Of a DNA stretch of 24,483 bases, positions 1 to 23,264 are shown piece after piece. Source of the stretch: a virus (taxonomy: Duplodnaviria > Caudoviricetes); the IMG/VR virus record IMGVR_UViG_3300032332_002443, positions 1-24,483 of that record. The stretch is one strand, 5' to 3'. Positions within the stretch are counted from its first letter, which is position 1. Every line of letters begins with the position of its first letter. The notes under the pieces are model-generated. The model saw only the letters and a list, made by a program, of their open reading frames with translations, was not told where the DNA came from and did no database searches. The translations under genes were made by a program, and so were the position numbers.

Positions 1-231
1 AACCTTAGCAATAGCAGCAATCGGCATTCCCTCATTAGTTAGACAAGATACTTCATATGCATTCCATATATCATATCCACAGAACGGAGGATTATTATCA
101 GAAATGTCTAAATGCTTTCTATTATTCTGTCTTGGCTCGCGAACTAAGAGTGATGGATCATATGTACATTTATACCCGGTTATTTTACCGAGATGCTTTG
201 ATATATTACTATTATCTAATTCCGTATTCAT
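1..231 (-). CDS. queF: 7-cyano-7-deazaguanine (preQ0) reductase QueF, bimodular type; N-terminal part, runs off the window edge
   Basis: Not in the ORF track. Manual translation from ATG 231: MNTELDNSNISKHLGKITGYKCTYDPSLLVREPRQNNRKHLDISDNNPPFCGYDIWNAYEVSCLTNEGMPIAAIAKV. This matches the E. coli-type QueF N-terminus (LGK-x-T-x-Y-x3-YD-x-SLL-x3-PR..R..L...PF-x-G-x-DIW-x2-YE-x-S-x-L-x3-G-x-P). Overlaps the end of the kinase gene by 20 nt. Confidence 0.9.
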   Translation of the reverse strand, partial: MNTELDNSNISKHLGKITGYKCTYDPSLLVREPRQNNRKHLDISDNNPPFCGYDIWNAYEVSCLTNEGMPIAAIAKV

Positions 232-790
232 TAAGTTTTATTTTAATTGCTTCCATTCGTTCTTCAACTGTTCCTTTTAAAATAGTTACCTTACCTTTTA
301 ACCGTTCATCTTTTAACCAAAAGTTCTCATACAAATCAATAATTGCATCTCTAAATTCTTTATTTGTACTTCTCTCACCATCGTCTACCAACGGTACATC
401 ATGAGGACTCGGATAAAAAATATGATCATATCTTTTAATATAATTTGTATAATATAAGAGACCTAAGCTATTAGACACAGGAAAATCATTTAGTCTGTCT
501 CTAGCAAAATAGCTTGTATAAACCATCCCATCCATTAAGCAGCGATCATGTAATATGCCTTGAAAATTAAATCCTTTATAATTATAAAACAAATTCTCAA
601 ATTCTTTATTCAGAATTAACGTCTGCGTTACATCATTAGCACCTTCTTCGTTTATATCACAATTATGCCAACGTTTAATTAGCCTAGTTACTTCATCAAT
701 ATAGCATAGCTTAGAGTCATAATATTCTTTACACTTCTTTAAAAGAGTAGTCTTACCCGAACACTGAGGACCTGTAAAAGTAAATATCAT
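212..790 (-). CDS. P-loop nucleotide kinase-like protein (AAA_28/NadR-like; putative (d)NMP kinase)
   Basis: Walker A GPQCSGKTT, E-x-x-R, HDRCLMDG (DR motif of TMPK-like kinases), YDHIFY, DDGER, LKGTVEER. Confidence 0.75.
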   Translation of the reverse strand: MIFTFTGPQCSGKTTLLKKCKEYYDSKLCYIDEVTRLIKRWHNCDINEEGANDVTQTLILNKEFENLFYNYKGFNFQGILHDRCLMDGMVYTSYFARDRLNDFPVSNSLGLLYYTNYIKRYDHIFYPSPHDVPLVDDGERSTNKEFRDAIIDLYENFWLKDERLKGKVTILKGTVEERMEAIKIKLNEYGIR

Positions 791-957
791 TTTTTAAGTA
801 TCTTAGCAGTATATTCTAACTCAATGCCATATAAAAGCTCTTTTAATGTTCTTACTTCTTCGCGAAGAATACGATTTTCTTCTTCTATTTTTTTTAGCTG
901 CTTTACTAATTCTGCTTTATTATCAGTTATTTGTCTATACCAATGCATTAAAGACAT
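787..957 (-). CDS. small coiled-coil hypothetical protein (56 aa)
   Basis: Manual translation MSLMHWYRQITDNKAELVKQLKKIEEENRILREEVRTLKELLYGIELEYTAKILKK. Fills the operon gap exactly, with an ATGA overlap into the kinase start. Confidence 0.7.
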   Translation of the reverse strand: MSLMHWYRQITDNKAELVKQLKKIEEENRILREEVRTLKELLYGIELEYTAKILKK

Positions 958-959
958 CT

Positions 960-1307
960 TTATTTACCCCACTTACCATTATATACTATTTCTGCAATAA
1001 TGCCATACACTGCAGAATCTCTAAATGCATCCATAACTGGCTCATTTGCTGAGCTCATTGCTTTCTTTTTTAAAACTAAATTAATTAACCGCTGAATTTT
1101 ATCATTAAGACGAACAACAATAGCAGATATTGCAGCAAACCTATCCTCTTGTTTTACTAAATCTGAACCAAGAGAAATATTTCCAGGACCGTAATCAAAT
1201 TGTTTTTTGCAAAACGTTTCGTAAAGCTCTATTTGTATTTTTTGAAACTCTTTGCATGTTTCAGGAAAATTTTTCTCTACGTATTTAATGGCATCTTCTT
1301 TATTCAC
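960..1307 (-). CDS. DUF1599 / nucleotide-modification-associated domain 1 (Nmad1), all-alpha protein
   Basis: KKQFDYGPGNI, RLNDKIQRLINL and EPVMDAFRDSAVYGII motifs. GTGA overlap with the guaC stop. Confidence 0.75.
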   Translation of the reverse strand: MNKEDAIKYVEKNFPETCKEFQKIQIELYETFCKKQFDYGPGNISLGSDLVKQEDRFAAISAIVVRLNDKIQRLINLVLKKKAMSSANEPVMDAFRDSAVYGIIAEIVYNGKWGK

Positions 1308-2263
1308 AATCTCACACCGTAATTCACTTTATTTAAATTTAATGAACCTAGATTGCAACCACCTGCATAGCTAATTGCACTCTGCAAATCTTGTTTTATT
1401 TCATCGAGTTTTTCTAGATATGTAAACGTATCTGTATCCATAAGCTTCATTGTACCTTCGATATTTTTCTTTTCAATTTTATTATGAACGCTAGCAGATC
1501 CAAAATATTGTTTATATCTTCTACCATTTGCATCCTTAACAAGGGGCGCTGGACTATCTGAACATGCAGCAAATATAGAACCGCACATTACCATATTAGC
1601 ACCTGCAACTAGCGCCTTAGCAATATCACCATTACTACGTACACCGCCGTCCGCAATAATAGGAATATTTCTATCTTTCGCACACTCCATAATACAGCTA
1701 AACATCGGATAGGTAAATCCGGTCTTATCTTTTGTTGTACATGCATATCCACCGCCAATGCCAACTTTTACTGCATCAGCCCCTGCATCATGCAAACACT
1801 CTACGCCTTCAAAAGTAGCTACATTACCAGCTATAACTATTGCCTTAGGCAAATTATCCTTAATTACTTTAATTTGATTAGCGACCTTGGAGTGGTGACC
1901 GTGTGCAACATCTATAGTGACGAAATCTACTCTAAGTTTATGGTTAGCTAAATTATTAATTAATGCTTTATCTTTAAATTGTATTCCTACGCTAATTGAA
2001 ACATTATTAAAAAGAGCTTCATTTGCATCTCTCACAAAAGCAAAAATATCATGATCAAATCTATGCATAATATAAAAGTAGTGTTTTGAATCCAATAATT
2101 GACAAATATCAAAATCAACACAACATCTCATATTAGCTGGTATAACTGGCAATTTAAATACTTTGCCTAAAAAATTAACATCTGTTTCAATTTCGCTACG
2201 AGTCTTAACAGAACTAAAGTTGGGTTTTAGAAAAACATTTTCGTAATGAAGAGATATATCCAT
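1304..2263 (-). CDS. guaC: GMP reductase
   Basis: IMPDH/GMPR barrel without CBS domains: PVIPANM, YIMHRF, TIDVAHGH, IAGNVAT, KVGIGGGYACTT (catalytic Cys), IIADGG, YFGSAS, DLQSAISYAGG. Confidence 0.9.
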   Translation of the reverse strand: MDISLHYENVFLKPNFSSVKTRSEIETDVNFLGKVFKLPVIPANMRCCVDFDICQLLDSKHYFYIMHRFDHDIFAFVRDANEALFNNVSISVGIQFKDKALINNLANHKLRVDFVTIDVAHGHHSKVANQIKVIKDNLPKAIVIAGNVATFEGVECLHDAGADAVKVGIGGGYACTTKDKTGFTYPMFSCIMECAKDRNIPIIADGGVRSNGDIAKALVAGANMVMCGSIFAACSDSPAPLVKDANGRRYKQYFGSASVHNKIEKKNIEGTMKLMDTDTFTYLEKLDEIKQDLQSAISYAGGCNLGSLNLNKVNYGVRL

Positions 2264-2264
2264 A

Positions 2265-2834
2265 TTATTTTTCTAAAACCTTATAAGCTGTGAAAAAACT
2301 TTTCCAGAGATCAAGTGCAGTGTCTCTCAGAGCACCGTATACACCATTTAAATCCATACCCTCAATACCTACGCCCTGACTCATTAATATTTCTCCCTCA
2401 TCTACACCTGGGGTAACCTTGTGTATAACACAACCGGCTAATTTGTAGCCTTGCACAAAAGCTCTTTCCTGCGGATTAAACCCTTTAAGCGATGGGAACT
2501 TATCAATCAGCCCTGGATGTAAGTTATATATTTCATACTGTTCACAAATCTCTTTAGGAATTATTCTCAAGTACCCATGAAGAGTGATCACCGGGTTATT
2601 AAAACACTTTAAGATTTTTAAATAATTGCTTGCAACCGGTTTGCTAGGCAAAGATATTAAAATAGTTTTATTAAGCTTATGCTCTCTAAACTGTGTTACA
2701 CTCAATAATCCCTTATTAACGTTTTTTAAATCTGACTTATTAGTTACAATTGCATCCGGATATACACCTAGCGTATTTGATATATCATGTATCTCGGTGC
2801 CGGTTTGCGAGAAAAATGTTATCCAAGGTCTCAT
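2265..2834 (-). CDS. PurN-like formyltransferase; by context probably a preQ1 formyltransferase (DpdN-like)
   Basis: FFSQTGTE, LHGYLRII, YNLHPGL (catalytic N/H), GCVIHKVTPGVDEGEIL (catalytic D). ATGA-coupled to the TGT-like gene. Confidence 0.8.
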   Translation of the reverse strand: MRPWITFFSQTGTEIHDISNTLGVYPDAIVTNKSDLKNVNKGLLSVTQFREHKLNKTILISLPSKPVASNYLKILKCFNNPVITLHGYLRIIPKEICEQYEIYNLHPGLIDKFPSLKGFNPQERAFVQGYKLAGCVIHKVTPGVDEGEILMSQGVGIEGMDLNGVYGALRDTALDLWKSFFTAYKVLEK

Positions 2835-3643
2835 CTACGAATAATCTTCTTAAACATTGTAGTATTATACTTTACTAGTTCAAGCTGATCATCAGTAATT
2901 TTATGTGTAATGAGATCGGCTAATTTTGTTGTCGGCTTATTTGTTAGACCGTAATCCGCATCATACTTTAAATTAAAGATAGCGGCAACGACAGGGTTAC
3001 TTGTATCACAAGAAACAATATTGTAGATATTCCTATCAACATAATATCGGAATTCTTTAGCCAAAGAGCAGCCTAATAAATGATGAGGTTTATTCCAGTT
3101 CCAAATATTACTATTAATTAAATCAGCAATAAAGCGCTGACGACCAGAACAGAACCTTTCAAGATCATTAGCACCATATCCAGTTGTCTGGTAGTAGCTA
3201 AAATCAAAACTTATTGCTATCATATCAGCACTATCAGACATAAACTTGTAACAATCAGCTAAATCTTTCCATGTCTTACCTTGAACAGCACCGATAGATT
3301 TCGTATAAAAGGATTTCTTAATATCATCAGTTTTCGTTTCAAATGCAACAAAGCTGCTAACAGTACCGTCAGCATCCTCTAGTACGTCAGGTACAATAAA
3401 CATATTTGGCTGAATATCTAGTGCAGCCTTATAAAACTTCTCAGGATTAAAAGCTTTGCCTAATTCAAATATTGAATTATCTAGAAGAACTTCTCTATTA
3501 TAAACAGAGCGCGCAGATTTAAAAAAGTTATAATATTCTGGAAATTCTTCAAAAAGATGAACTAATGCATAGTCAAAATCATTATATTTTTGTGACTCTT
3601 GGAGTATAGATATAGGCGATTCGTGTGAAACTTTCATTAGCAT
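2831..3643 (-). CDS. dpdA: TGT-fold deazaguanine transglycosylase-like protein (DpdA family, probably DpdA3-type)
   Basis: TIM-barrel motifs in TGT order: VLLDNSIFE, FIVPDV, GAVQG, IAISF, HHLLGC, SCDTSNP. No C-terminal Zn site. Start moved from TTG 3694 to ATG 3643, which lies 6 nt below a -10 box. Confidence 0.75.
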   Translation of the reverse strand: MLMKVSHESPISILQESQKYNDFDYALVHLFEEFPEYYNFFKSARSVYNREVLLDNSIFELGKAFNPEKFYKAALDIQPNMFIVPDVLEDADGTVSSFVAFETKTDDIKKSFYTKSIGAVQGKTWKDLADCYKFMSDSADMIAISFDFSYYQTTGYGANDLERFCSGRQRFIADLINSNIWNWNKPHHLLGCSLAKEFRYYVDRNIYNIVSCDTSNPVVAAIFNLKYDADYGLTNKPTTKLADLITHKITDDQLELVKYNTTMFKKIIRR

Positions 3644-7876: not shown

Positions 7877-8461
7877 TTATTTATAGTAAAAATTATTTTT
7901 ACTCATTATAGTTAAGCCATAGCAAAATGCTATCTTGTTATTATTTCTTTTATGAATATGCAGCGGACACCAGCCCTTACTTACTAGATAATTATTAAGA
8001 CGTCTTTCAGGTGCATCATCTGATTTAAATCCATATCTTAATAAGCTCCACGCGCCTGTATCATGTATCGCAATAATAGTTTTATCGGTTATTTTCTGAG
8101 AACTTAGCATTGTTTCAAAAAAAATAATCTGACCATCACTATCATGTGTATCAAAAAATATTAAATCTATATTATCCATCGGGATATCATCTGGAACAAT
8201 ATTCTTAATATCTTTATGAATAAAAATAAATCCCCTATAAGCATTCTTATATTCATTTTTATCTATGCTTACTACTTTTCCGTCAAACGAAGATACGGAT
8301 TGCAAAAAATTATTTGCTGAATATCCGGTACTAGTACCTAATTCGACTATATTTTTTAATCTCATAGCTCTACATAAAGCATAAAGAAATAATGCTTCAT
8401 CATCACTAATTGCATTAGGTACAGTATCTAGGTGCTGTATTAAATGAGACATATGATACAT
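7877..8461 (-). CDS. class I SAM-dependent methyltransferase (Methyltransf_24-like)
   Basis: IVELGTSTGYS, VVSID, IDLIFFDTHD, IAIHDT. Start moved to ATG 8461 (or 8452), just after the nrdA stop. Confidence 0.8.
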   Translation of the reverse strand: MYHMSHLIQHLDTVPNAISDDEALFLYALCRAMRLKNIVELGTSTGYSANNFLQSVSSFDGKVVSIDKNEYKNAYRGFIFIHKDIKNIVPDDIPMDNIDLIFFDTHDSDGQIIFFETMLSSQKITDKTIIAIHDTGAWSLLRYGFKSDDAPERRLNNYLVSKGWCPLHIHKRNNNKIAFCYGLTIMSKNNFYYK

Positions 8462-8468
8462 GGCTAAC

Positions 8469-10727
8469 CTACAGCTTGCATGCGCCGCTAGAGCAATCAG
8501 CTTCTTTATTTGTCGACTGCTCTTTATCGCCATCATCCGTGTTATTATAATATAAACTTATAAGACCCATACTGTAAGCATACATTAGTTCTTTCATTAC
8601 TTTTGCATCAGGTAGAACATTATTTTCATACTGACTGTAGTTGTAGTAAATGTTAGTCGAAATAGCCATATCAATATATTTTTGTATAACAGCATTTATA
8701 TTAATAATACCCGTATTGTCTTTAAAATTATAAGCTAATTCATAATTCGAATCATACTTTCCAATACCCGGAACAAGTACTGGTAATTTACCCATCTTAG
8801 ACATCTTGTATGTTATTAATGACCGTACTGGCTCTACACCATTGGTAGAGCATTGTATTACAGAGCTTGACTCGCAAGGCATACAGCAGGAAAGTGTTGA
8901 ATGTCTGAGACCAAATTCTTTTATTTGCTCGCGCAAGCTCTTCCAGTCAAGCGATAATTTTCTTTTTAAAATTTCATCAACATTTTTCTTATAGGTATCA
9001 ATTGAAAGGATACCTTTGGCAAATTTTGTTCGTTCATATTTTTCACACTTACCCTTCTCTTTAGCTAGCTTATTACTCGAAGAAAGAAGATAATATTGAA
9101 AATGTTCCATCCATTCATCAATTAAAACTAGTGCCTGTTTGGAGTTATATGATACTTCATTCTTAGCTAAGAACGCAGCAAGATTGGTGATCCCTATACC
9201 TAAGCTTCTTCTTTTTTTAGCAAAATTTTCTGCTGCTTTATTGAAGTAATATTGTATATCAATTATTTCCTCTAAAAATCTTACCGCAAGATCACATGTT
9301 TTCTCAAGGTCTTTCCAATCTTTAATCTCAAGCATATTAATTGCAGACAAGATACACATGCCTATCTCACCATCTGAATCATGATAGTCTTTAAGAGGTA
9401 TGGTGGGGTGTAGTACTTCAGTACAAAGATTACTCATTGTTACCTTATCCAACCAAGGAGTGTGTTCATTTGCTGTATCTACGTTTAAAATATAGATGCG
9501 ACCGGTCTCAACACGCTCCTTAATAATTAGAGAAAATAGCTTACGAGCTGATATTTTCTTTTTAAGTTTAATTTTTTTATCTGATTCACACTCTTCATAC
9601 ACTTTATTAAATCGTGATGTGCCCCATGCTTCATATAGATGTGGTACTTCAGCGGGGCTAAATAGAGTTATATTTTCGTTTTTTATTACTCTGTCATAAA
9701 AAAGCTTTGACATACCCACTGTGTAATCAAGCTTACGAACTCTATTATCATCAGTACCTGCATTATTTTTAAGTACAACAATATCATCAATTTCATAATG
9801 CCACCACTGAACATTAACTGTAGCTGAACCACCTCTTAAGCCATTCTGCTGCCATGCTTTAACTGAAGCTTCATAAATCTTTAAAAACGGAATCAGACCA
9901 GTATGAACTACTTCACCGTTATTAACAGATGAACCAATAGCTCTTATTTTAGAGACATCAATACCAATGCCACATCTACTCGCAGTAGCAATTGATATAG
10001 CTGTACCGGATGCTGTAATTGACTCCTTTGTGTCATCGACACCTATCAAGCAACAACTTGCATAGCTTTTCGATCTCGATCTCACACCTGCCATAATAGG
10101 TGTAGGTAGATTAATCTTATGCCTTGAAATAGCGTTATAAAACCTTCTTACATATTCTAACCGAGCTTCTGCTGGATAATTTATAAACGCATACATAGCT
10201 ATGAGAATATAAGCAAATTGAGGTGTTTCAAAAATTTTATCTGTAACTCTATTTTTAATTAGATATTTGTCACAAAGTTGTTTTATACCAGCGTAAGTAA
10301 ATAAAAAGTCTCTATCATGATCAATATATTCACCAATTTTGTTTATTTCATCCTCAGAATATTTTTCAATTATAGCAGGATCATAAATTTCCTTTCTAAG
10401 TCCAGAATTAATTACATCAAGCAATCGTGGAGGATGCTTACCACCCCAAACATCTTTACGTAATTGATAATTTAATAATCTACCTGCAACATATTGATAG
10501 TTTGGTTTTTCAAGTGATATTAAATTTGCTGCTGATTCAATTAAAACTTGGTGTATATCTTGTGTAGAAATGTTTTCCGTTATATTAAGTTTTGAATTAA
10601 TTTCTACTTCCGATAAGCTTACACCGCTTATCCCTTCAACCGCCCACGAGATTACCTTATTAATCTTTTCAATATTAAATTTTTCTACCTGACCGTTGCG
10701 TTTTTTTACGAATATTTGAGTGCTCAT
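8469..10727 (-). CDS. nrdA: ribonucleotide reductase class Ia alpha subunit with ATP cone
   Basis: VKKRNG ATP cone, LPTPIM, SCCLI, SNLCTE, MPCESSS, SLYY, C-terminal CSSGACKL. Confidence 0.95.
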   Translation of the reverse strand: MSTQIFVKKRNGQVEKFNIEKINKVISWAVEGISGVSLSEVEINSKLNITENISTQDIHQVLIESAANLISLEKPNYQYVAGRLLNYQLRKDVWGGKHPPRLLDVINSGLRKEIYDPAIIEKYSEDEINKIGEYIDHDRDFLFTYAGIKQLCDKYLIKNRVTDKIFETPQFAYILIAMYAFINYPAEARLEYVRRFYNAISRHKINLPTPIMAGVRSRSKSYASCCLIGVDDTKESITASGTAISIATASRCGIGIDVSKIRAIGSSVNNGEVVHTGLIPFLKIYEASVKAWQQNGLRGGSATVNVQWWHYEIDDIVVLKNNAGTDDNRVRKLDYTVGMSKLFYDRVIKNENITLFSPAEVPHLYEAWGTSRFNKVYEECESDKKIKLKKKISARKLFSLIIKERVETGRIYILNVDTANEHTPWLDKVTMSNLCTEVLHPTIPLKDYHDSDGEIGMCILSAINMLEIKDWKDLEKTCDLAVRFLEEIIDIQYYFNKAAENFAKKRRSLGIGITNLAAFLAKNEVSYNSKQALVLIDEWMEHFQYYLLSSSNKLAKEKGKCEKYERTKFAKGILSIDTYKKNVDEILKRKLSLDWKSLREQIKEFGLRHSTLSCCMPCESSSVIQCSTNGVEPVRSLITYKMSKMGKLPVLVPGIGKYDSNYELAYNFKDNTGIININAVIQKYIDMAISTNIYYNYSQYENNVLPDAKVMKELMYAYSMGLISLYYNNTDDGDKEQSTNKEADCSSGACKL

Positions 10728-14790: not shown

Positions 14791-15249
14791 TTAATCTAGT
14801 TTAACGGATTCCCAAGGAAAGTCAAGCCAAATATTGTCGTCAAATTCTCTTATATAAAAATTCGGAATAAACTGTGTAGATTTCTTTATGTAGAGTGTGG
14901 CAAATTTAAAATTAGTAAACTCACATGATTCAAAATAATCTTTTACGGCTAAAAGCGTTTTACCTTTATCGGAAAGATCGTCAATAATTACAACTCTTTT
15001 CTCTCTAAATTCTGAATTAAATTTAAACCCCGGTATTTGTCCAAATTCTAATTCACCAGCAGTAAAGTCGTGATAAGATTTAATAGCAAAATTTGCTACC
15101 GGTACATCAAATATATAAGAAATAATAGCACCGGGTACTAAGCCCCCACGACCAATAGCAACAATAGCATCACAAGGACCAATAAGGTTAGCTAAATCTT
15201 TACAATCTTTATGTATTTGATCCCACGCCAGGCTTATACGTTCCGACAT
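14791..15249 (-). CDS. purine phosphoribosyltransferase (Gpt/XGPRT-like)
   Basis: AIGRGGLVPG, IKSY, PRPP loop VIIDDLSDKGKT, WLDFPWE. Confidence 0.85.
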   Translation of the reverse strand: MSERISLAWDQIHKDCKDLANLIGPCDAIVAIGRGGLVPGAIISYIFDVPVANFAIKSYHDFTAGELEFGQIPGFKFNSEFREKRVVIIDDLSDKGKTLLAVKDYFESCEFTNFKFATLYIKKSTQFIPNFYIREFDDNIWLDFPWESVKLD

Positions 15250-16557: not shown

Positions 16558-17628
16558 ATGGCTGATACTACTATATCTCAATTGACTCAAAGTACGCCTG
16601 CAGGTAGTAGTATTCTTCCGTATAGTACTGGATCTAATACATTAGGTGTTCCTGTATCTGCTATATTTCAAAATACTAATAGAGTAGGAATAGGTACTTC
16701 TACGCCAGGATATCCCCTAGAAGTTGCTGACAACGATTTTCCTTACATTCTCCTCAGAGGAAGTAACAGTAATTCTCTTGCTATATATGGAGGAACAACA
16801 TCAACCGATTACTCTGTAGTTCATTCTGGTATTAATAAAGATTTAAGTATATCCTCCAATGGAGGGGTTCCGCTGGGAGGTTTATATATTAAAGCATCGG
16901 GTAATATAGGTATCGGTACCCTAACGCCTACTACTAAGCTAGATGTAGCTGGTACTGTTAATGCTACAAATATATACAAGGGTGGTGTAGAGGTACCTAT
17001 AGGTCTTAACGGGACACTTCTCTATTCCACTGCTGGTAGCTCTACTTGGACAGTACCTCCATTAATTACTCGAGTAAGAATTACTGCAGTTGGTGGTGGG
17101 GGGGGATCAGGTGGCGCAGCATCTAACGTCACACCGACGGCAGGTAGTCAAACAACAGTTGTATTAGGAGCAACAACCCTCACAGCGGGCGGCGGCGGTA
17201 ATAGTGCAAACAGCAGTAGTGCTGGTGGTGCAGGTGGTACAGCTTCCGGTGGTACATATAATATTAATGGGCAAGATGGTACTGATGGAAATTATAATAA
17301 CGTCGGTAGTGGTTTAACTTTTCCAGTTTTTGGTGGTAGAGCCCCGTTTGCTCTATCTATCAGCGGTGTGGGTGGTAACCGAAGCCCATCTAGTACGCCG
17401 TTGTTTGGCGGTGGAGGTGGCGGTAGCTATAATACTGGCTTTGGTGGTAGTATTGGCGCAGGCGGTAGTGGTGGTGTTTCTACTGCAGTGATAACAACTA
17501 CCCCAGGTTCAACAGCAACTATAACTGTAGGTGCAGGGGGTAATGGTGCTACTTCTGTTAATACTGGAAGCTCAGCGTATATATATGGTCAGGCGGGAGC
17601 TGCAGGCTGTGTTCTTATTGAGTGGTAA
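16558..17628 (+). CDS. tail fibre/receptor-binding paralogue 1 (Gly-rich C-terminal domain)
   Basis: MADTTISQL anchor, (N/R)(V/I)GIGTxxP repeats, TWTVP...VGGGGG...GCVLIEW glycine-rich domain. Confidence 0.75.
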   Translation: MADTTISQLTQSTPAGSSILPYSTGSNTLGVPVSAIFQNTNRVGIGTSTPGYPLEVADNDFPYILLRGSNSNSLAIYGGTTSTDYSVVHSGINKDLSISSNGGVPLGGLYIKASGNIGIGTLTPTTKLDVAGTVNATNIYKGGVEVPIGLNGTLLYSTAGSSTWTVPPLITRVRITAVGGGGGSGGAASNVTPTAGSQTTVVLGATTLTAGGGGNSANSSSAGGAGGTASGGTYNINGQDGTDGNYNNVGSGLTFPVFGGRAPFALSISGVGGNRSPSSTPLFGGGGGGSYNTGFGGSIGAGGSGGVSTAVITTTPGSTATITVGAGGNGATSVNTGSSAYIYGQAGAAGCVLIEW

Positions 17629-17823
17629 TTACCAGTGATGTATAGCGTTTGCTATAATAAAACCACACGTAATAAAATTAACCAAGACAATTAGCGTACG
17701 TATAAATAAGCTAATATTCGCATCTCGTACCTTTAAGGTAGGTACATCAGGCTTACAATCATCGGTTAAGCCAACGCGATGATCTACCGCACGTGACCAA
17801 ATAAGCCAAAGCTTCTTAAGCAT
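17629..17823 (-). CDS. small membrane protein of a type common in T4-like phages
   Basis: LWLIW...IRTLIVLVNFITCGFIIANAIHHW; TAATG overlap with the upstream gene. Confidence 0.65.
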   Translation of the reverse strand: MLKKLWLIWSRAVDHRVGLTDDCKPDVPTLKVRDANISLFIRTLIVLVNFITCGFIIANAIHHW

Positions 17824-17969
17824 TAATATTTCTTACGCTTGGTACCTTTATCAGAACGAGTAGCACGAATACTAGTACCACAATTTTTACGAGCATAAGC
17901 AGCATAACTTTTAGTCACACGATAAGAAGGATTCTGCCTATTAAATGTAGATTTAATTTTGTTTACCAT
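17823..17969 (-). CDS. small basic protein (48 aa) with RSDKGxxR motif
   Basis: Manual translation MVNKIKSTFNRQNPSYRVTKSYAAYARKNCGTSIRATRSDKGTKRKKY. Confidence 0.65.
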   Translation of the reverse strand: MVNKIKSTFNRQNPSYRVTKSYAAYARKNCGTSIRATRSDKGTKRKKY

Positions 17970-18003
17970 ATTAAGAGTATAGCGGACTCTTAATTCTTAT
18001 CAA
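17970..18003 (-). promoter_or_regulatory. sigma70-like promoter overlapped by a 9-bp inverted repeat
   Basis: TTGATA-16-TATACT, 6 nt above ATG 17969; ATTAAGAGT-N7-ACTCTTAAT at 17970-17994. Confidence 0.6.
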
Positions 18004-18151
18004 ATGTTTTTTTTACAAGCAGTTGTTGCTGGCGCTCTAAAACTTTTTGAACATATTGACATTGTAATTGTCCGCCTAATTTAGCAATTATATCTTCGCA
18101 TTCTTTTAGCGAGAGCTGATTAACTTTTTTGCTTTTCTTTTCTTTTGCCAT
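17990..18151 (-). CDS. small hypothetical protein (53 aa)
   Basis: Manual translation MAKEKKSKKVNQLSLKECEDIIAKLGGQLQCQYVQKVLERQQQLLVKKTFDKN; starts 4 nt after the upstream stop. Confidence 0.6.
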   Translation of the reverse strand: MAKEKKSKKVNQLSLKECEDIIAKLGGQLQCQYVQKVLERQQQLLVKKTFDKN

Positions 18152-18155
18152 ATAG

Positions 18156-18857
18156 TTACCTGTACGCGCTATGTCCAGTTAAACTATTAAAACAAATAGT
18201 ATTTTCATTTACATACAAAGGATCCGTATCAACATTTTCAGAATACACAACAACCTCAGTTATACCTGAATAATTAGTTCCACTATATAATATTGTTTTA
18301 TTAAAAAGAGGTGCTTGATTCTCATAATTTTCTCTAAAAACTTTAAATACATTATAATCGCCAATGCCAGGGCCATTTATTTTCCATATTTTTAAAGTAA
18401 AAACAGAATCAGATCGATAGGGATAGTTAATATCAACCCACCCACCATTATAATCATACCCCATATATTTTGGTGTACTAATATCAGTCATAGCTCTAAA
18501 CCCTGCAACAAGGGTACCACCGGTATAAAATCTTGCTCCTTTTTCACCATGACGGAAGTTTATACCAAGCTTCAAGGTTAATACACCGGTATCAATACCA
18601 TTACCCTCAGATAAAGGCATAGCTAATTGACGCGATACTGACATCTCAACATTAGGTGCATACATCCTAAAGCAGGAGGTATCGTCACTAGCCAAATTTG
18701 GATATATGCCTAGAGCGTTATTATAATAAGCTGGTCCCGCAGAATATATACCGCCGGTACCGCTAGCCTCATATGATGTCCAAGCCTGCCACCCTGTACC
18801 GCCATTAGCAGGTACTGCAGAAAGCCCGATACCAGAGGGATCATTAGTCCAAGCCAT
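18156..18857 (-). CDS. hypothetical beta-rich protein, possibly virion-associated
   Basis: 233-aa G/Y/N/T-rich ORF with NGGTGWQAW; TAAATA 7 nt upstream. Confidence 0.65.
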   Translation of the reverse strand: MAWTNDPSGIGLSAVPANGGTGWQAWTSYEASGTGGIYSAGPAYYNNALGIYPNLASDDTSCFRMYAPNVEMSVSRQLAMPLSEGNGIDTGVLTLKLGINFRHGEKGARFYTGGTLVAGFRAMTDISTPKYMGYDYNGGWVDINYPYRSDSVFTLKIWKINGPGIGDYNVFKVFRENYENQAPLFNKTILYSGTNYSGITEVVVYSENVDTDPLYVNENTICFNSLTGHSAYR

Positions 18858-18928
18858 ATATTAATATTTATTGTCAAATGCGATATAATATGGTGTTGCT
18901 TTATTATTAACCTTATCTAAATAAAGGT

Positions 18929-19126
18929 GTGAAAATAATTCTTGAAACTACTATCAGTAAGGACAATAAAGCAGCTGAAACTCTTCGCGTTGGATTAGAG
19001 TTAGATCAAGTAGCTAGTATTGCAAAGACAAGAGGACTAGCTGAAGCTAATAAAGCTATCGATAAGTTTATCGGTAAATACACCGAAGACCTTAAAGAGA
19101 AGCTAGCATCTGTTCTAACTAAATAA
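18929..19126 (+). CDS. hypothetical protein
   Basis: GTG start 5 nt below TAAATA (18918-18923). Confidence 0.65.
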   Translation: MKIILETTISKDNKAAETLRVGLELDQVASIAKTRGLAEANKAIDKFIGKYTEDLKEKLASVLTK

Positions 19127-19172
19127 CTTATCACTATCTAAAGAGTTTGTCTTTAAGCCATAAATAATTAGT

Positions 19173-19934
19173 ATGGCTGATGTAACTATTAATGGATTAA
19201 CTCCTGGAACGCCTGCTGGTAATAATATATTACCCTATAGCACCGGTGCTAATACTCTCAGCGTGTCAGTATCTGCTTTGTTTCATAACGCAGGTAACAT
19301 AGGTATTGGAACAAGCAATCCTGTCACAAGGCTCACTGTTAATGGAGATAGTTTTTTAAATTATACTAACACCTCTGGCTTGCTGCTTAGAAATTTGGCA
19401 TCTGAAAATCGCATTGATTCATACAATTATCCAATTACACAAGGATATCCTTTGGCTGTTCTTGCTTCAACAGTTAGATTTCAAAATGCAAGTAATGAAA
19501 CTATGCGCATTGATGCTGCAGGCAATGTGGGTATAGGTACATCCACACCTCAGGCTAGACTAGATGTAAATGGTAATATGTACAACAACAATCTTCCTAT
19601 GTATGGTATAAGAGCATGGGTAAGATTTTCAGGAGCAAACGATGTAAACGGCAATGTAAGTACAGCAAATACAGATAGGCAAATCATTGCGAGTGGAAAT
19701 ATAACACGTGTTAATAGAACTTCATTAGGAAATTATGATATATACATTACCACAGGATTTGCTAATACAAACTATTCTGTAGTAGCAAACATAGTACATG
19801 CCGTTGGAGCTACTACAGCTGTACATATTGATGCATACTCCTCAACCTCTTCGCTAGTTAAAGCGTGGTGTTCATACCAACCTAATACTATAAGTTATGA
19901 CCCCAGCGGTGTCGATATATGGATAATAGGATAA
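19173..19934 (+). CDS. tail fibre/receptor-binding paralogue 2
   Basis: MADVTI anchor, GN(I/V)GIGT repeats, RAWVRF C-terminal module. Confidence 0.75.
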   Translation: MADVTINGLTPGTPAGNNILPYSTGANTLSVSVSALFHNAGNIGIGTSNPVTRLTVNGDSFLNYTNTSGLLLRNLASENRIDSYNYPITQGYPLAVLASTVRFQNASNETMRIDAAGNVGIGTSTPQARLDVNGNMYNNNLPMYGIRAWVRFSGANDVNGNVSTANTDRQIIASGNITRVNRTSLGNYDIYITTGFANTNYSVVANIVHAVGATTAVHIDAYSSTSSLVKAWCSYQPNTISYDPSGVDIWIIG

Positions 19935-19938
19935 TAAT

Positions 19939-20562
19939 ATGGCTGATACTACAATAACTGGATTAAATGGTCTATCGCCATCCACTAATACCTATGTACC
20001 TATATCTAACGGTACAACTACAGGTAGAGCATTATATAATCCGGTTCCCGTTGGCGGTATTATAATGTGGTCAGGGGCAGTAGCCGATATACCAACTGGT
20101 TGGGCCCTCTGTAACGGGCAAGTAGTTAATGGTAATACTACTCCCAATCTACTCGATAAATTTATCCTAGGTGCAGGCAGTGCATATAACCCGGGTAATA
20201 CCGGCGGATCAAGTACAACTACCCCTGCTGGTACAATAGGTAATACTGCGATTACACCTACCGGTACTGTAGGTGATACTACACTGACAAGTGCTCAAAT
20301 ACCAGCACATAGCCACACCACTGCAATTAAAACATGTGGATCCGAGGCAACTGGATATGGCTTGCAGGCAGGTTCTGGGAGCTTTAGAGACAGGATCTAC
20401 GTAACCGGTGGTAGTACAGATACTAGTTCAACTGGAAGTGGAGGCAGTCATAATCATACATTCACCGGTACCAGTCAAAGTCATAATCATACATTCACCG
20501 GTACCAGTCAAGCCAATCTTCCACCGTACTATGCTTTGGCATATATAATGAGGGTATATTAA
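19939..20562 (+). CDS. tail fibre paralogue 3 with tail-collar domain and HxH needle
   Basis: PVGGIIMWSG...PTGWALCNG...TPNLLDKFILGAG collar; HSH, HNH, HNH; NLPPYYALAYIMR. Confidence 0.8.
   Translation: MADTTITGLNGLSPSTNTYVPISNGTTTGRALYNPVPVGGIIMWSGAVADIPTGWALCNGQVVNGNTTPNLLDKFILGAGSAYNPGNTGGSSTTTPAGTIGNTAITPTGTVGDTTLTSAQIPAHSHTTAIKTCGSEATGYGLQAGSGSFRDRIYVTGGSTDTSSTGSGGSHNHTFTGTSQSHNHTFTGTSQANLPPYYALAYIMRVY
20446..20511 (+). repeat. perfect 33-bp tandem duplication (SHNHTFTGTSQ x2)
   Basis: agtcataatcatacattcaccggtaccagtcaa at 20446-20478 and 20479-20511. Confidence 0.95.
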
Positions 20563-20563
20563 T

Positions 20564-21292
20564 ATGGCCGATGTAACGATTAATGAATTAACAAAAGGTA
20601 CTCCTACAGGTAATAGTATATTACCATATAGTACCGGTTCAAATACACTAGGTGTACCAGTATCAGCTATATTACAAGATGCAGGTAATATAGGTATAGG
20701 AAATAATAGCCCGCAAAGCAAACTACATGTTTATGATGCTTCTAATAGCTTAATAGCTCTTGGAAGAGCTGGAAATCCACAAGCACTTGCAAAATGGGAA
20801 TATAATAGCGGTACTTGTTCTTTTGGAACAAGAGATACAGATAACTTAGAATTAATAACAAACAACGTCTCAAGATTATTCATGAATACAGTAGGTAATG
20901 TAGGTATAGGTACATCATCACCTACAGCTAAGCTAGATGTAAATGGTGATGTTAAGGCTACCAATACACCAAAAGCATGGGTAAATTTTGACGGGATTAA
21001 TGGCAGTACGGTTGGAGGTGAATTTAGGTGTAATATACTTAAAAATTATAATATCAATAAAGTTGTAAGAACTGCTACAGGCAGATACACTGTTTACTTT
21101 ACAACAGCTGCACCAGATGCATACTACGTTACAACTGGTGCTTGTAATTACAATAATGCTAATGATGATAATCTAACCATATTCTCCATCGGCTCACAAT
21201 ATACAAGCTACTGTCAAGTGGTAAGCAGGGGATATGGAACTGCAGCAGGCTACTTCAATCCCAGCTCTATGCAGGTTTTAATTCATTATTAA
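20564..21292 (+). CDS. tail fibre/receptor-binding paralogue 4
   Basis: MADVTI anchor, GN(I/V)GIG repeats, TPKAWVNFDG module. Confidence 0.75.
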   Translation: MADVTINELTKGTPTGNSILPYSTGSNTLGVPVSAILQDAGNIGIGNNSPQSKLHVYDASNSLIALGRAGNPQALAKWEYNSGTCSFGTRDTDNLELITNNVSRLFMNTVGNVGIGTSSPTAKLDVNGDVKATNTPKAWVNFDGINGSTVGGEFRCNILKNYNINKVVRTATGRYTVYFTTAAPDAYYVTTGACNYNNANDDNLTIFSIGSQYTSYCQVVSRGYGTAAGYFNPSSMQVLIHY

Positions 21293-21337
21293 GATCTAGT
21301 ATACTCTAAAGGGACTCTAAAGGGAGTGAGTATACTT

Positions 21338-21377
21338 ACGAGCGCAGCGAATAGGCACGGCTTGGAACATAAATAAT
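21338..21377 (+). repeat. 40-bp intergenic element, copy 1 (ends in TAAATA promoter)
   Basis: acgagcgcagcgaataggcacggcttggaacataaataat; 36/40 identical to 22192-22231. Confidence 0.9.
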
Positions 21378-21382
21378 AGCAT

Positions 21383-22171
21383 ATGGCTGATACTACTATA
21401 TCAGGGTTAACACTAACAACGCCTACCCCTTCATTTCTATTACCTTGTAGTGATGGATCTACAACATATTCATCCTGTATCTCGAGTATGTTTTTAAATA
21501 TGGGTAACAAGTATATTAATGTCTTTGGTAATAGCAATGAATTTAACACCGGCACAGGTCTTGTGCTACGCAATTCATATTCAGGGCATGGATTTACAAG
21601 TATATACTTTGGTAACGATGCCTCTTTTAATGCAGGAGCCGTATGGCAGGGCAGTAGCAATTACACATATTATGCAGGTCCAAGCAGTATGAACATAGGT
21701 ACACTTATTAATTCACCTCTAGGATTAGTAGCGGGTAATAGCGTAAGAATGCTTATAACAAGCGGGGGTAATGTAGGTGTAGGTACAAACACCCCGCAAG
21801 CCAAATTGGATGTAGTCGGAGATGTTAAAGCAACAAATACACCAAAAGCATGGGTAAATTTTGATGGAACTGGCGCCATTGGCACCAATCAAACCATCAG
21901 AAGCTCATACAATGTTGCATCAGTTTATAAGGGCAACACAGGCTCATATAGAATTACATTCACATCTGCACAAACAGATAATAATTATTGTGTAACAGGA
22001 GCATCAGCTCCTGCGTATTCTGCATATTGGACAAGCTTAGCATTACATACTGCTGCACCCACTAATGGGGGAACTGAGTCAGCCCCTACAAATGCATATT
22101 TTGATGTATGTGTGGTGATGCAGACTACCGGCAAGGTAGATTCAAAGTATGTGAGTGTTGTTGTGCTTTAA
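21383..22171 (+). CDS. tail fibre/receptor-binding paralogue 5
   Basis: MADTTI anchor, GNVGVGT repeat, TPKAWVNFDG module. Confidence 0.75.
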   Translation: MADTTISGLTLTTPTPSFLLPCSDGSTTYSSCISSMFLNMGNKYINVFGNSNEFNTGTGLVLRNSYSGHGFTSIYFGNDASFNAGAVWQGSSNYTYYAGPSSMNIGTLINSPLGLVAGNSVRMLITSGGNVGVGTNTPQAKLDVVGDVKATNTPKAWVNFDGTGAIGTNQTIRSSYNVASVYKGNTGSYRITFTSAQTDNNYCVTGASAPAYSAYWTSLALHTAAPTNGGTESAPTNAYFDVCVVMQTTGKVDSKYVSVVVL

Positions 22172-22191
22172 ACAACAACAAGGTTATACAA

Positions 22192-22231
22192 ACGAGCGTA
22201 GCGAATAGGCACGGCACAGAACATAAATAAT
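22192..22231 (+). repeat. 40-bp intergenic element, copy 2
   Basis: acgagcgtagcgaataggcacggcacagaacataaataat. Confidence 0.9.
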
Positions 22232-22235
22232 CAAT

Positions 22236-23264
22236 ATGGCTGATGTAACAATATCAGAGCTTAATAAAGGTATACCCGCTGGTAATGCATTATTACCGTA
22301 TAGTACCGGTTCAAATACATTAGGAGTGCCTGTATCAGCTATATTACAAAATGCAGGTAATATAGGCATAGGAACTAATAACCCGTCTCAAAAACTTGAT
22401 GTTTATGGTGGAGGAGCCTTTACATTTGTTGAGGTCGGTAAAAGCGGTCAAACAGGAAATAGATTTGCATATGTTGATCTTACAGGTGATGATACATATA
22501 CAGATTACGGATTTAGAATTCTTAGAGGGAATACAGGAGCTAATACAGACACTACTTTAATAAACAGAGGATCTGGATTGTTAATTGTTGCTGCTGGACA
22601 AGCTACTGGAGAAACAGGGCAGGTTGTAATTTCCACCGCTAATACAGAACGCATGCGCATTGATTCGAGCGGTAATGTTGGTATAGGTACTTCCTCTCCA
22701 GCCAGACAGCTTACGGTGGATAGTGCAGCAAATCCTGAAATTGGATTGTATACATCTGGAATAGAAAGAGTCAAATTATCTACAGGAGGATCAGCTTTGA
22801 GCCAGCTTGTGATTGATACAGCAGGACAACCGCGCGTTGTCATTAATAGCGTGGGCATGGGCATTAGCACTATATCACCTATAGAGAGATTGACTGTGTC
22901 AGGCAACATCAGTGCTTCTGGAGATGTAAAATCTACAAATACACCTAAAGCGTGGGTGAATTTCAACGGTACAACAGGTGCCACAGTAGGTACTGAGTTT
23001 ATATGTACAATTAGATCAGATTATAATGTCGATAGAGTTGTTCGAACCTCGACTGGTAATTTTAGGGTTTATTTCACTACGGCAATGTCAAATACTAACT
23101 ATACTATTAATACTACAGCAAATACACTGACTTCACCTACATGCTTCTTTATTGGACCGCTCGATGGTGGTATAGCAACCAGTTATTTTGATATACGGGT
23201 AATCAATTTTAATAATAGTCCAGCAAATCCTGTTATTATATCTGCTGTTGTATACAGTTCATAA
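22236..23264 (+). CDS. tail fibre/receptor-binding paralogue 6
   Basis: MADVTI anchor, three GIGT-type repeats, TPKAWVNFNG module. Confidence 0.75.
   Translation: MADVTISELNKGIPAGNALLPYSTGSNTLGVPVSAILQNAGNIGIGTNNPSQKLDVYGGGAFTFVEVGKSGQTGNRFAYVDLTGDDTYTDYGFRILRGNTGANTDTTLINRGSGLLIVAAGQATGETGQVVISTANTERMRIDSSGNVGIGTSSPARQLTVDSAANPEIGLYTSGIERVKLSTGGSALSQLVIDTAGQPRVVINSVGMGISTISPIERLTVSGNISASGDVKSTNTPKAWVNFNGTTGATVGTEFICTIRSDYNVDRVVRTSTGNFRVYFTTAMSNTNYTINTTANTLTSPTCFFIGPLDGGIATSYFDIRVINFNNSPANPVIISAVVYSS

Follow-up and report, generated by a model that had tools for sequence, protein, structure and literature searches.

Complete replacement of guanine by 7-deazaguanine bases (100% of G) is reported for the phages CP220, phiST and immuto_2-6A (Cui 2023, PMC10516641), and the base system (DpdA3/DpdN, fdPreQ1) is already published. 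Here we describe a 24,483-bp virus fragment (IMG/VR record IMGVR_UViG_3300032332_002443; the entire fragment is referred to as the window), which is T4-like with respect to gp5, nrdAB, lysozyme and tail-fibre genes, and which carries a dpdA3 operon predicted from its gene content to replace DNA guanine with formyl-preQ1. We report that a gene for a P-loop kinase accompanies dpdA3 in nearly all relatives, which argues for the new base being built on free nucleotides before replication. That DpdA3 swaps the base on free dGMP (or deoxyguanosine) while the kinase feeds replication is, in our judgement, an evenly balanced call.

The closest described system is that of immuto_2-6A (fdPreQ1, 100% of G replaced), which has the same dpdA3-dpdN-kinase-queF order and shares 46.5% (DpdA3), 46% (DpdN) and 29% (kinase) identity with the window. 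In the window, guaC and an Nmad1-like gene separate dpdN from the kinase gene, whereas immuto_2-6A has neither but carries a PRA-PH/MazG-type hydrolase gene two genes upstream, no more than three genes from dpdA3. In CP220 (dADG) and phiST (dDG) a kinase gene directly adjoins dpdA3, and in phiST mazG is three genes from dpdA3; the two differ in their final base and in having no DpdN, GuaC or Nmad1. The DpdA1 systems (9g, CAjan and phiSM) have TGT-family motifs and preQ0 pathway genes, as here, but their modification is partial and post-replicative, and a kinase gene is rarely near dpdA1 (see below). Full substitution through the deoxynucleoside triphosphate (dNTP) pool is known from the T4 hmC pathway. 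The pool enzymes of the Z-genome phages (DUF5664, MazZ and DmtZ) also give full substitution via the dNTP pool, by the same logic as proposed here; DmtZ swaps the base on a deoxynucleoside monophosphate (dNMP; PMC12884076) and is an NDT-family enzyme, whereas DpdA3 has the TGT fold. Modified dGTP was already raised for Campylobacter phages by Hutinet 2019 (PMC6884629), so the nucleotide-pool idea itself is not new. The words "kinase", "GMP" and "dGTP" are absent from the main text of Cui 2023 (PMC10516641), the supplements of which may list neighbouring genes. No literature tying the kinase, GuaC or DUF1599 to DpdA3 was found by title and start of abstract, with subscription papers outside this scope.

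The genes of the block lie on the minus strand in the order dpdA3–dpdN–guaC–Nmad1-like gene–56-amino-acid open reading frame (ORF)–kinase gene–queF:

2831..3643, minus strand (ORF extends to 3694): dpdA3, TGT-fold guanine transglycosylase of about 268-270 amino acids (identity, structure match)
2265..2834, minus strand: dpdN, PurN-like formyltransferase of 189 amino acids (Formyl_trans_N, E 8.6e-16; best NCBIfam match PurN; 46% identity to the immuto DpdN)
1304..2263, minus strand: guaC, GMP reductase, an accessory gene (profiles, 1YPF match, Cys175 loop intact)
960..1307, minus strand: Nmad1/DUF1599-like four-helix protein of 115 amino acids, candidate dNTP pyrophosphatase (homologues, ESM Atlas, model)
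787..957, minus strand: 56-amino-acid ORF between the Nmad1-like gene and the kinase gene, patchy among relatives
212..790, minus strand: AAA_28 P-loop nucleoside/nucleotide kinase of 192 amino acids, core DpdA3 partner (AAA_28, PHROG, linkage counts)
1..231, minus strand: queF (preQ0 reductase, bimodular), 5' part only, the gene being cut by the contig end (QueF_N, E 3.7e-17)

The sequence-only reading had placed guaC, DUF1599/Nmad1 and a P-loop kinase gene between the formyltransferase gene and queF, and this is the arrangement seen. Since the junctions from dpdA3 to queF are -4, +1, -4, +2, -4 and -20 bp, the block is regarded as a single operon, and both DpdN and QueF are linked to dpdA3 in the window. 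In close relatives QueF is 304-316 amino acids long. FolE, QueD, QueE and QueC were not found within the 24.5-kb fragment; a complete relative with the same operon (G004) holds all four. The cassette sits next to the T4-like gp5 gene, and in relatives its other flank is the major capsid gene.

The DpdA3 of the window is 45% identical to that of CP220, its AlphaFold model has a pLDDT of 95 and its best Foldseek matches are all TGT (E 4.6e-8). D53, D84, G120, G189 and D211 do not vary across 46 sequences, and we take D53 and D211 to be the TGT catalytic pair; a CxCxxC motif is not present in DpdA3. Median surface charge per 100 amino acids is -3.2 for DpdA3 vs -1.9 for DpdA1, and this gap is given little weight because both proteins are acidic. 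One locus has a tandem pair of DpdA3-like genes (265 and 289 amino acids; L184:5962-7621) that share an operon with DpdN, DUF3310 and QueF.

The survey comprised 370 DpdA3 ORFs, which formed 176 clusters at 90% identity and 54 at 70%; those flanked by 3 kb or more on each side, 121 and 40, respectively, were kept for counting. As control, 96 DpdA1 ORFs gave 54 and 27 clusters, of which 46 and 23 were kept. In 114 of the 121 clusters (35/40 at 70%) there is a kinase gene no more than 4 kb from dpdA3, and in 92 it is within 1.5 kb; for the gene of DpdA1 the corresponding counts are 2/46 (2/23 at 70%) and none. Because the kinase profiles came from DpdA3 neighbours, a family-blind P-loop pattern was added, and it was found within 4 kb in 105/121 DpdA3 vs 1/46 DpdA1 clusters. 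Close relatives with at least 3.6 kb downstream (66 of 79 loci) have the kinase in 65, QueF in 59, DpdN in 56, the Nmad1-like gene in 52 and a downstream GuaC in 23 cases; the counts 65, 52 and 23 therefore make kinase, Nmad1-like protein and GuaC nested layers. In the three phages with measured full G replacement (CP220, phiST and immuto) the kinase gene is beside dpdA3 or at most two genes away; in phiST the adjoining gene product, CGPG_00066, is an AAA_18 protein with a P-loop. Searched against 50,697 phage records, the window kinase matches 21, all Campylobacter or immuto phages, i.e. DpdA3 carriers. Seven DpdA3 loci were detected in GTDB genomes, all on contigs of metagenome-assembled genomes with a phage-derived appearance, so no cellular DpdA3 system is demonstrated; three have the kinase, three contigs end too early and one (L596) has none within 5 kb.

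The window kinase matches AAA_28 (E 3.6e-12) and the PHROG "thymidylate kinase" (E 9.9e-22), and G7, G12, K13, R36, D82, R83, D137, R140 and R178, i.e. P-loop, DR motif and lid arginines, are invariant. Four kinase families (AAA_28, AAA_18, Tmk and DUF3310) fill the role across the DpdA3 tree; the deepest clades have Tmk-type, AAA_18-type and AAA_28-type kinases, and DUF3310 supplants the AAA_28-type in four clusters. T7 gp1.7, which phosphorylates dTMP and dGMP (PMC7693777), falls in the DUF3310 family. In addition, DpdL and the kinase are fused in five loci, while none of the 370 DpdA3 ORFs is fused to a kinase. In three of the seven 90% clusters outside the count of 114 (L056, L154 and L235) the kinase gene is 6-7 kb off, and L162 has the same insertion as L154. 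In L154, L162 and L235 a block of approximately 6 kb on the opposite strand, with bacterial-looking genes, separates dpdA3 from its kinase gene. Some T4-like DpdA3 genomes have a second paralogue of the kinase gene: beside queE in G004 (L522:351-1097), beside the dUTPase gene in CP220 (L510:5407-5940) and near queD/queE in G010 (L537:17266-18093). Two phosphorylation steps or a split specificity are possible explanations.

On a nucleotide-level route, FolE, QueD, QueE and QueC together with QueF would make preQ1, which DpdA3 would put in place of guanine on dGMP or deoxyguanosine, and the PurN-like DpdN would then formylate the free aminomethyl nucleotide; PurN, the best match of DpdN, uses a nucleotide monomer as substrate. 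The modified nucleotide, which the host guanylate kinase may refuse, would be phosphorylated by the linked kinase towards the triphosphate for the phage polymerase. An optional slot could be filled by the Nmad1-like protein, possibly converting dGTP to dGMP, which would take away the competitor and supply DpdA3 with substrate. GuaC is an ordinary GMP reductase, a late gain in this lineage; it would channel salvaged guanine into IMP and adenine nucleotides, and the route does not require it. The role that the sequence-only reading gave the kinase in such a route has strong gene context on its side (114/121 vs 2/46), the activity being what we infer. The failure of the DpdA3 tests in E. coli (Cui 2023, PMC10516641) is counted in favour of this route.

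For the 115-amino-acid protein (960-1307) no Pfam match was obtained, PF07659 included, and the DUF1599 label is indirect: PF07659 matches at E≤1 in 45 of 61 aligned homologues, the best of these at E 0.0014, homologue matches overall (best E 1.7e-4) stay below the curated cut-off, and in the top ESM Atlas clusters (0.96) DUF1599 is present in 30-59% of the members. The model is all-helical with four helices (pLDDT 92). D69, K70, E89, D93, D97 and Y101 are invariant, of which E89, D93, D97 and D69 could be metal ligands; the canonical ExxE...ExxD motif is absent, and the hhalign alignment to the PRA-PH D...D helix covers 9 columns only and is non-significant. The gene is present in 44/121 clusters, all within a single clade (support 87) and always together with DpdN, and DpdN and Nmad1 are fused in four loci (L395, L399, L401 and L402). 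In three clusters inside this clade (L046, L058 and L140) the slot is taken by PF18909 (DUF5664), which is also the link to the Z-genome systems; this family hydrolyses dATP, dUTP and dGTP to monophosphates (PMC12884076). Other clades, including immuto and phiST, carry PRA-PH/MazG types. With the known families searched, a candidate pyrophosphatase is near 77/121 clusters; by class the counts within 4 kb of dpdA3 are N 44, M 28, D 3, F 2 and none 44, no cluster (0/121) has two classes, and there are 13 state changes on the tree. We consider it plausible, perhaps a toss-up, that the Nmad1-like protein is a pyrophosphatase. The slot replacement and the DpdN fusions agree with the dGTP pyrophosphatase role first suggested; the fold and profile tests gave no MazG match (see below). 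Nmad1 as a universal DpdA3 partner was considered and rejected (0/5 in one comparison and 1/5 in another). In CP220 an HD + AAA_33 protein, gp055 (L081:10868-11899), is encoded directly upstream of dpdA3 and could be the dGTP hydrolase that is missing.

GuaC of the window matches Pfam IMPDH (E 1.7e-54) and scores 337.9 bits against NF003966 (GMP reductase; ~6 under the cut-off of 344) vs 160.7 bits against IMPDH; its best PDB match over the full length is the GMP reductase 1YPF (E 8.7e-77), the catalytic loop with Cys175 is intact and canonical-looking, and there is no CBS domain. The gene is near dpdA3 in 24/121 clusters (2/40 at 70%), with 11 state changes on the DpdA3 tree, and it is absent from immuto_2-6A, CP220, phiST and two other DpdA3 contigs. 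The idea that GuaC belongs to the core was therefore rejected, given its absence from three verified phages and its patchy distribution; the co-occurrence with dpdA3 anticipated by the sequence-only reading holds for the kinase, but the Nmad1-like gene is limited to a single clade and guaC is rare, so the "full set" is one lineage's variant and not a defining system. Of 43 loci seeded with the window GuaC, 39 have the gene inside the operon and four just upstream of gp5, while subtypes with 29-52% identity occur in other DpdA3 genomes upstream, after Nmad1 or elsewhere. GuaC looks like a purine-balance gene gained repeatedly. Other passengers of dpd operons (L003, L042, L048 and L063) include Trp-halogenase, cupin, HIT, ornithine cyclodeaminase and inorganic pyrophosphatase genes; the operon is thus an insertion hot spot, and less weight is placed on the position of guaC. 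Recycling of released guanine to adenine nucleotides is likelier than enforcement of the substitution, because a hard GMP drain would presumably starve FolE of GTP.

Several points weigh against a pre-replicative route and against a pyrophosphatase within it. We know of no TGT-fold enzyme that works on a monomer, and in work by Crippen from 2019 no dADG phosphates were reportedly seen in CP220-infected cells. The kinase profile matches (NadR ribosylnicotinamide kinase 1.4e-6, deoxynucleoside kinase 1.2e-5, thymidylate kinase 2e-5) are nearly equal and would suit either a nucleoside or a monophosphate as substrate, and three loci (L075, L204 and L324) have no clear kinase gene near dpdA3. The control consists of DpdA1 only (the DpdA1 profile did not pick up the DpdA2 gene of VH7D) and mostly of small 55-60 kb phages, so that genome size confounds the comparison; shared ancestry of the DpdA3 clusters makes Fisher p-values too strong for the kinase linkage. 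For the Nmad1-like model, Foldseek gave nothing in the PDB at E≤0.001, and in VIA-align the best Z was 7.2, to generic hairpins, with no MazG or dUTPase among the matches listed, so the MazG/dUTPase-type fold that had been suggested for DUF1599 did not emerge; hhalign against seven families gave probabilities <1%. The 44 clusters that have no pyrophosphatase class within 4 kb count here too, as does the absence of an all-alpha pyrophosphatase from CP220 (local profiles, 198 ORFs; Pfam, 105/130 small ORFs) and from the complete genome G010 (known families). For pyrophosphatases the DpdA1 control figure, 2/46, is an undercount, as a few more MazG-like DpdA1 neighbours exist, and 32 of 80 Nmad1-seeded loci do not have dpdA3 within 6 kb (48 do). 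Finally, every 7-deazaguanine mark is proposed to be post-replicative by Cui 2023 (PMC10516641).

A mixed route is the alternative that survives best, although we regard it as rather unlikely: DpdA3 would swap the base in DNA, the kinase would recycle modified dNMPs or nucleosides from proofreading, recombination and turnover, and re-entry via replication would lift the level to 100%. The TGT chemistry then stays on the polymer and the kinase linkage is accounted for without a universal dGTPase; the kinase profile is nearest to the nucleoside kinases (NadR, deoxynucleoside kinase), and ADG nucleoside is reported in the cytoplasm of CP220-infected cells (Cui 2023, PMC10516641). However, salvage should also help DpdA1 phages, with their 25-30% modification, yet the kinase is near only two of the 46 control clusters, and a kinase fused to DpdL, the enzyme that makes the base, suits a forward pathway better.

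It is more improbable still that the published model holds unchanged, with DpdA3 acting on finished DNA only, as proposed by Cui 2023 (PMC10516641), and with the kinase, Nmad1 and GuaC as generic dNTP-supply genes of large phages, clustered by chance. This would fit the 73 phage records that have GuaC/GuaB-type genes, for the most part without dpdA3, the varied positions of the GuaC subtypes, the Nmad1 homologues encoded in replication modules and in phages with no dpdA3 nearby, and the second kinase paralogues of CP220, G004 and G010. It covers GuaC, but not four kinase families flanking dpdA3 (92/121 within 1.5 kb), and it leaves unexplained the DpdL fusions and the confinement of the kinase family to DpdA3 phages among the 50,697 records.

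The window also encodes a phosphoribosyltransferase (PRT), 11 kb from the operon:

14791..15249, minus strand: xanthine/guanine phosphoribosyltransferase-like gene (NF006613, E 1.8e-23)

We infer that this PRT would salvage guanine once released. In toyocamycin synthesis, homologues of GMP reductase use deazapurine nucleotides as substrates. A ribonucleotide route, in which the PRT joins preQ1 to phosphoribosyl pyrophosphate, the deoxy-triphosphate is made by the kinase and the neighbouring NrdAB, and the substrate of GuaC is GMP or deaza-GMP, could draw on that precedent, on PRT and nrdAB both being in the window and on a PRT within the immuto que cluster, but it is very improbable: it gives no reason why the TGT catalytic residues should be invariant in DpdA3, the active-site loop of GuaC looks canonical, and PRT genes are beside DpdA1 in 20/46 vs DpdA3 in 30/121 clusters. 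As PRT genes are also near DpdA1, the PRT does not discriminate between the models, and it was rejected as a marker of a pool route. PRT domains occur directly upstream of dpdA1 in 33 loci (within L437-L508) in ORFs of ~300-400 amino acids, which may be PRT-FolE fusions; salvage of released guanine would suit these.

Elsewhere in the window, a class I methyltransferase gene (7877-8536, minus strand) lies between nrdA and nrdB. It looks recently inserted, since contig L001, which is 97-98% identical, lacks positions 7887-8472, and among 598 loci only one other contig yielded a homologue (L118/L565, 42%). At least six paralogous tail-fibre-like ORFs (16558-23264, plus strand) have a common N-terminal MADxTI start, and four also have a C-terminal domain in common; they are possibly a cassette array of receptor-binding modules.

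Returning to the nucleotide-level route, its fullest form, with DpdA3 as the first TGT-fold enzyme to exchange a base on free dGMP and so yield G-free genomes pre-replicatively, a kinase devoted to the route and recruited on at least four occasions, Nmad1/DUF1599 as a new dGTP pyrophosphatase family and GuaC repeatedly captured to drain displaced guanine, is a tentative proposal to which we give somewhat less than an even chance. For the way in which phages reach 100% guanine replacement, the kinase link names a missing partner. If true, the route would open enzymatic access to fully G-substituted DNA and to analogues of 7-deaza-dGTP, would add a class of substrates that is new to the TGT fold, and would point to a possible role for DUF1599.

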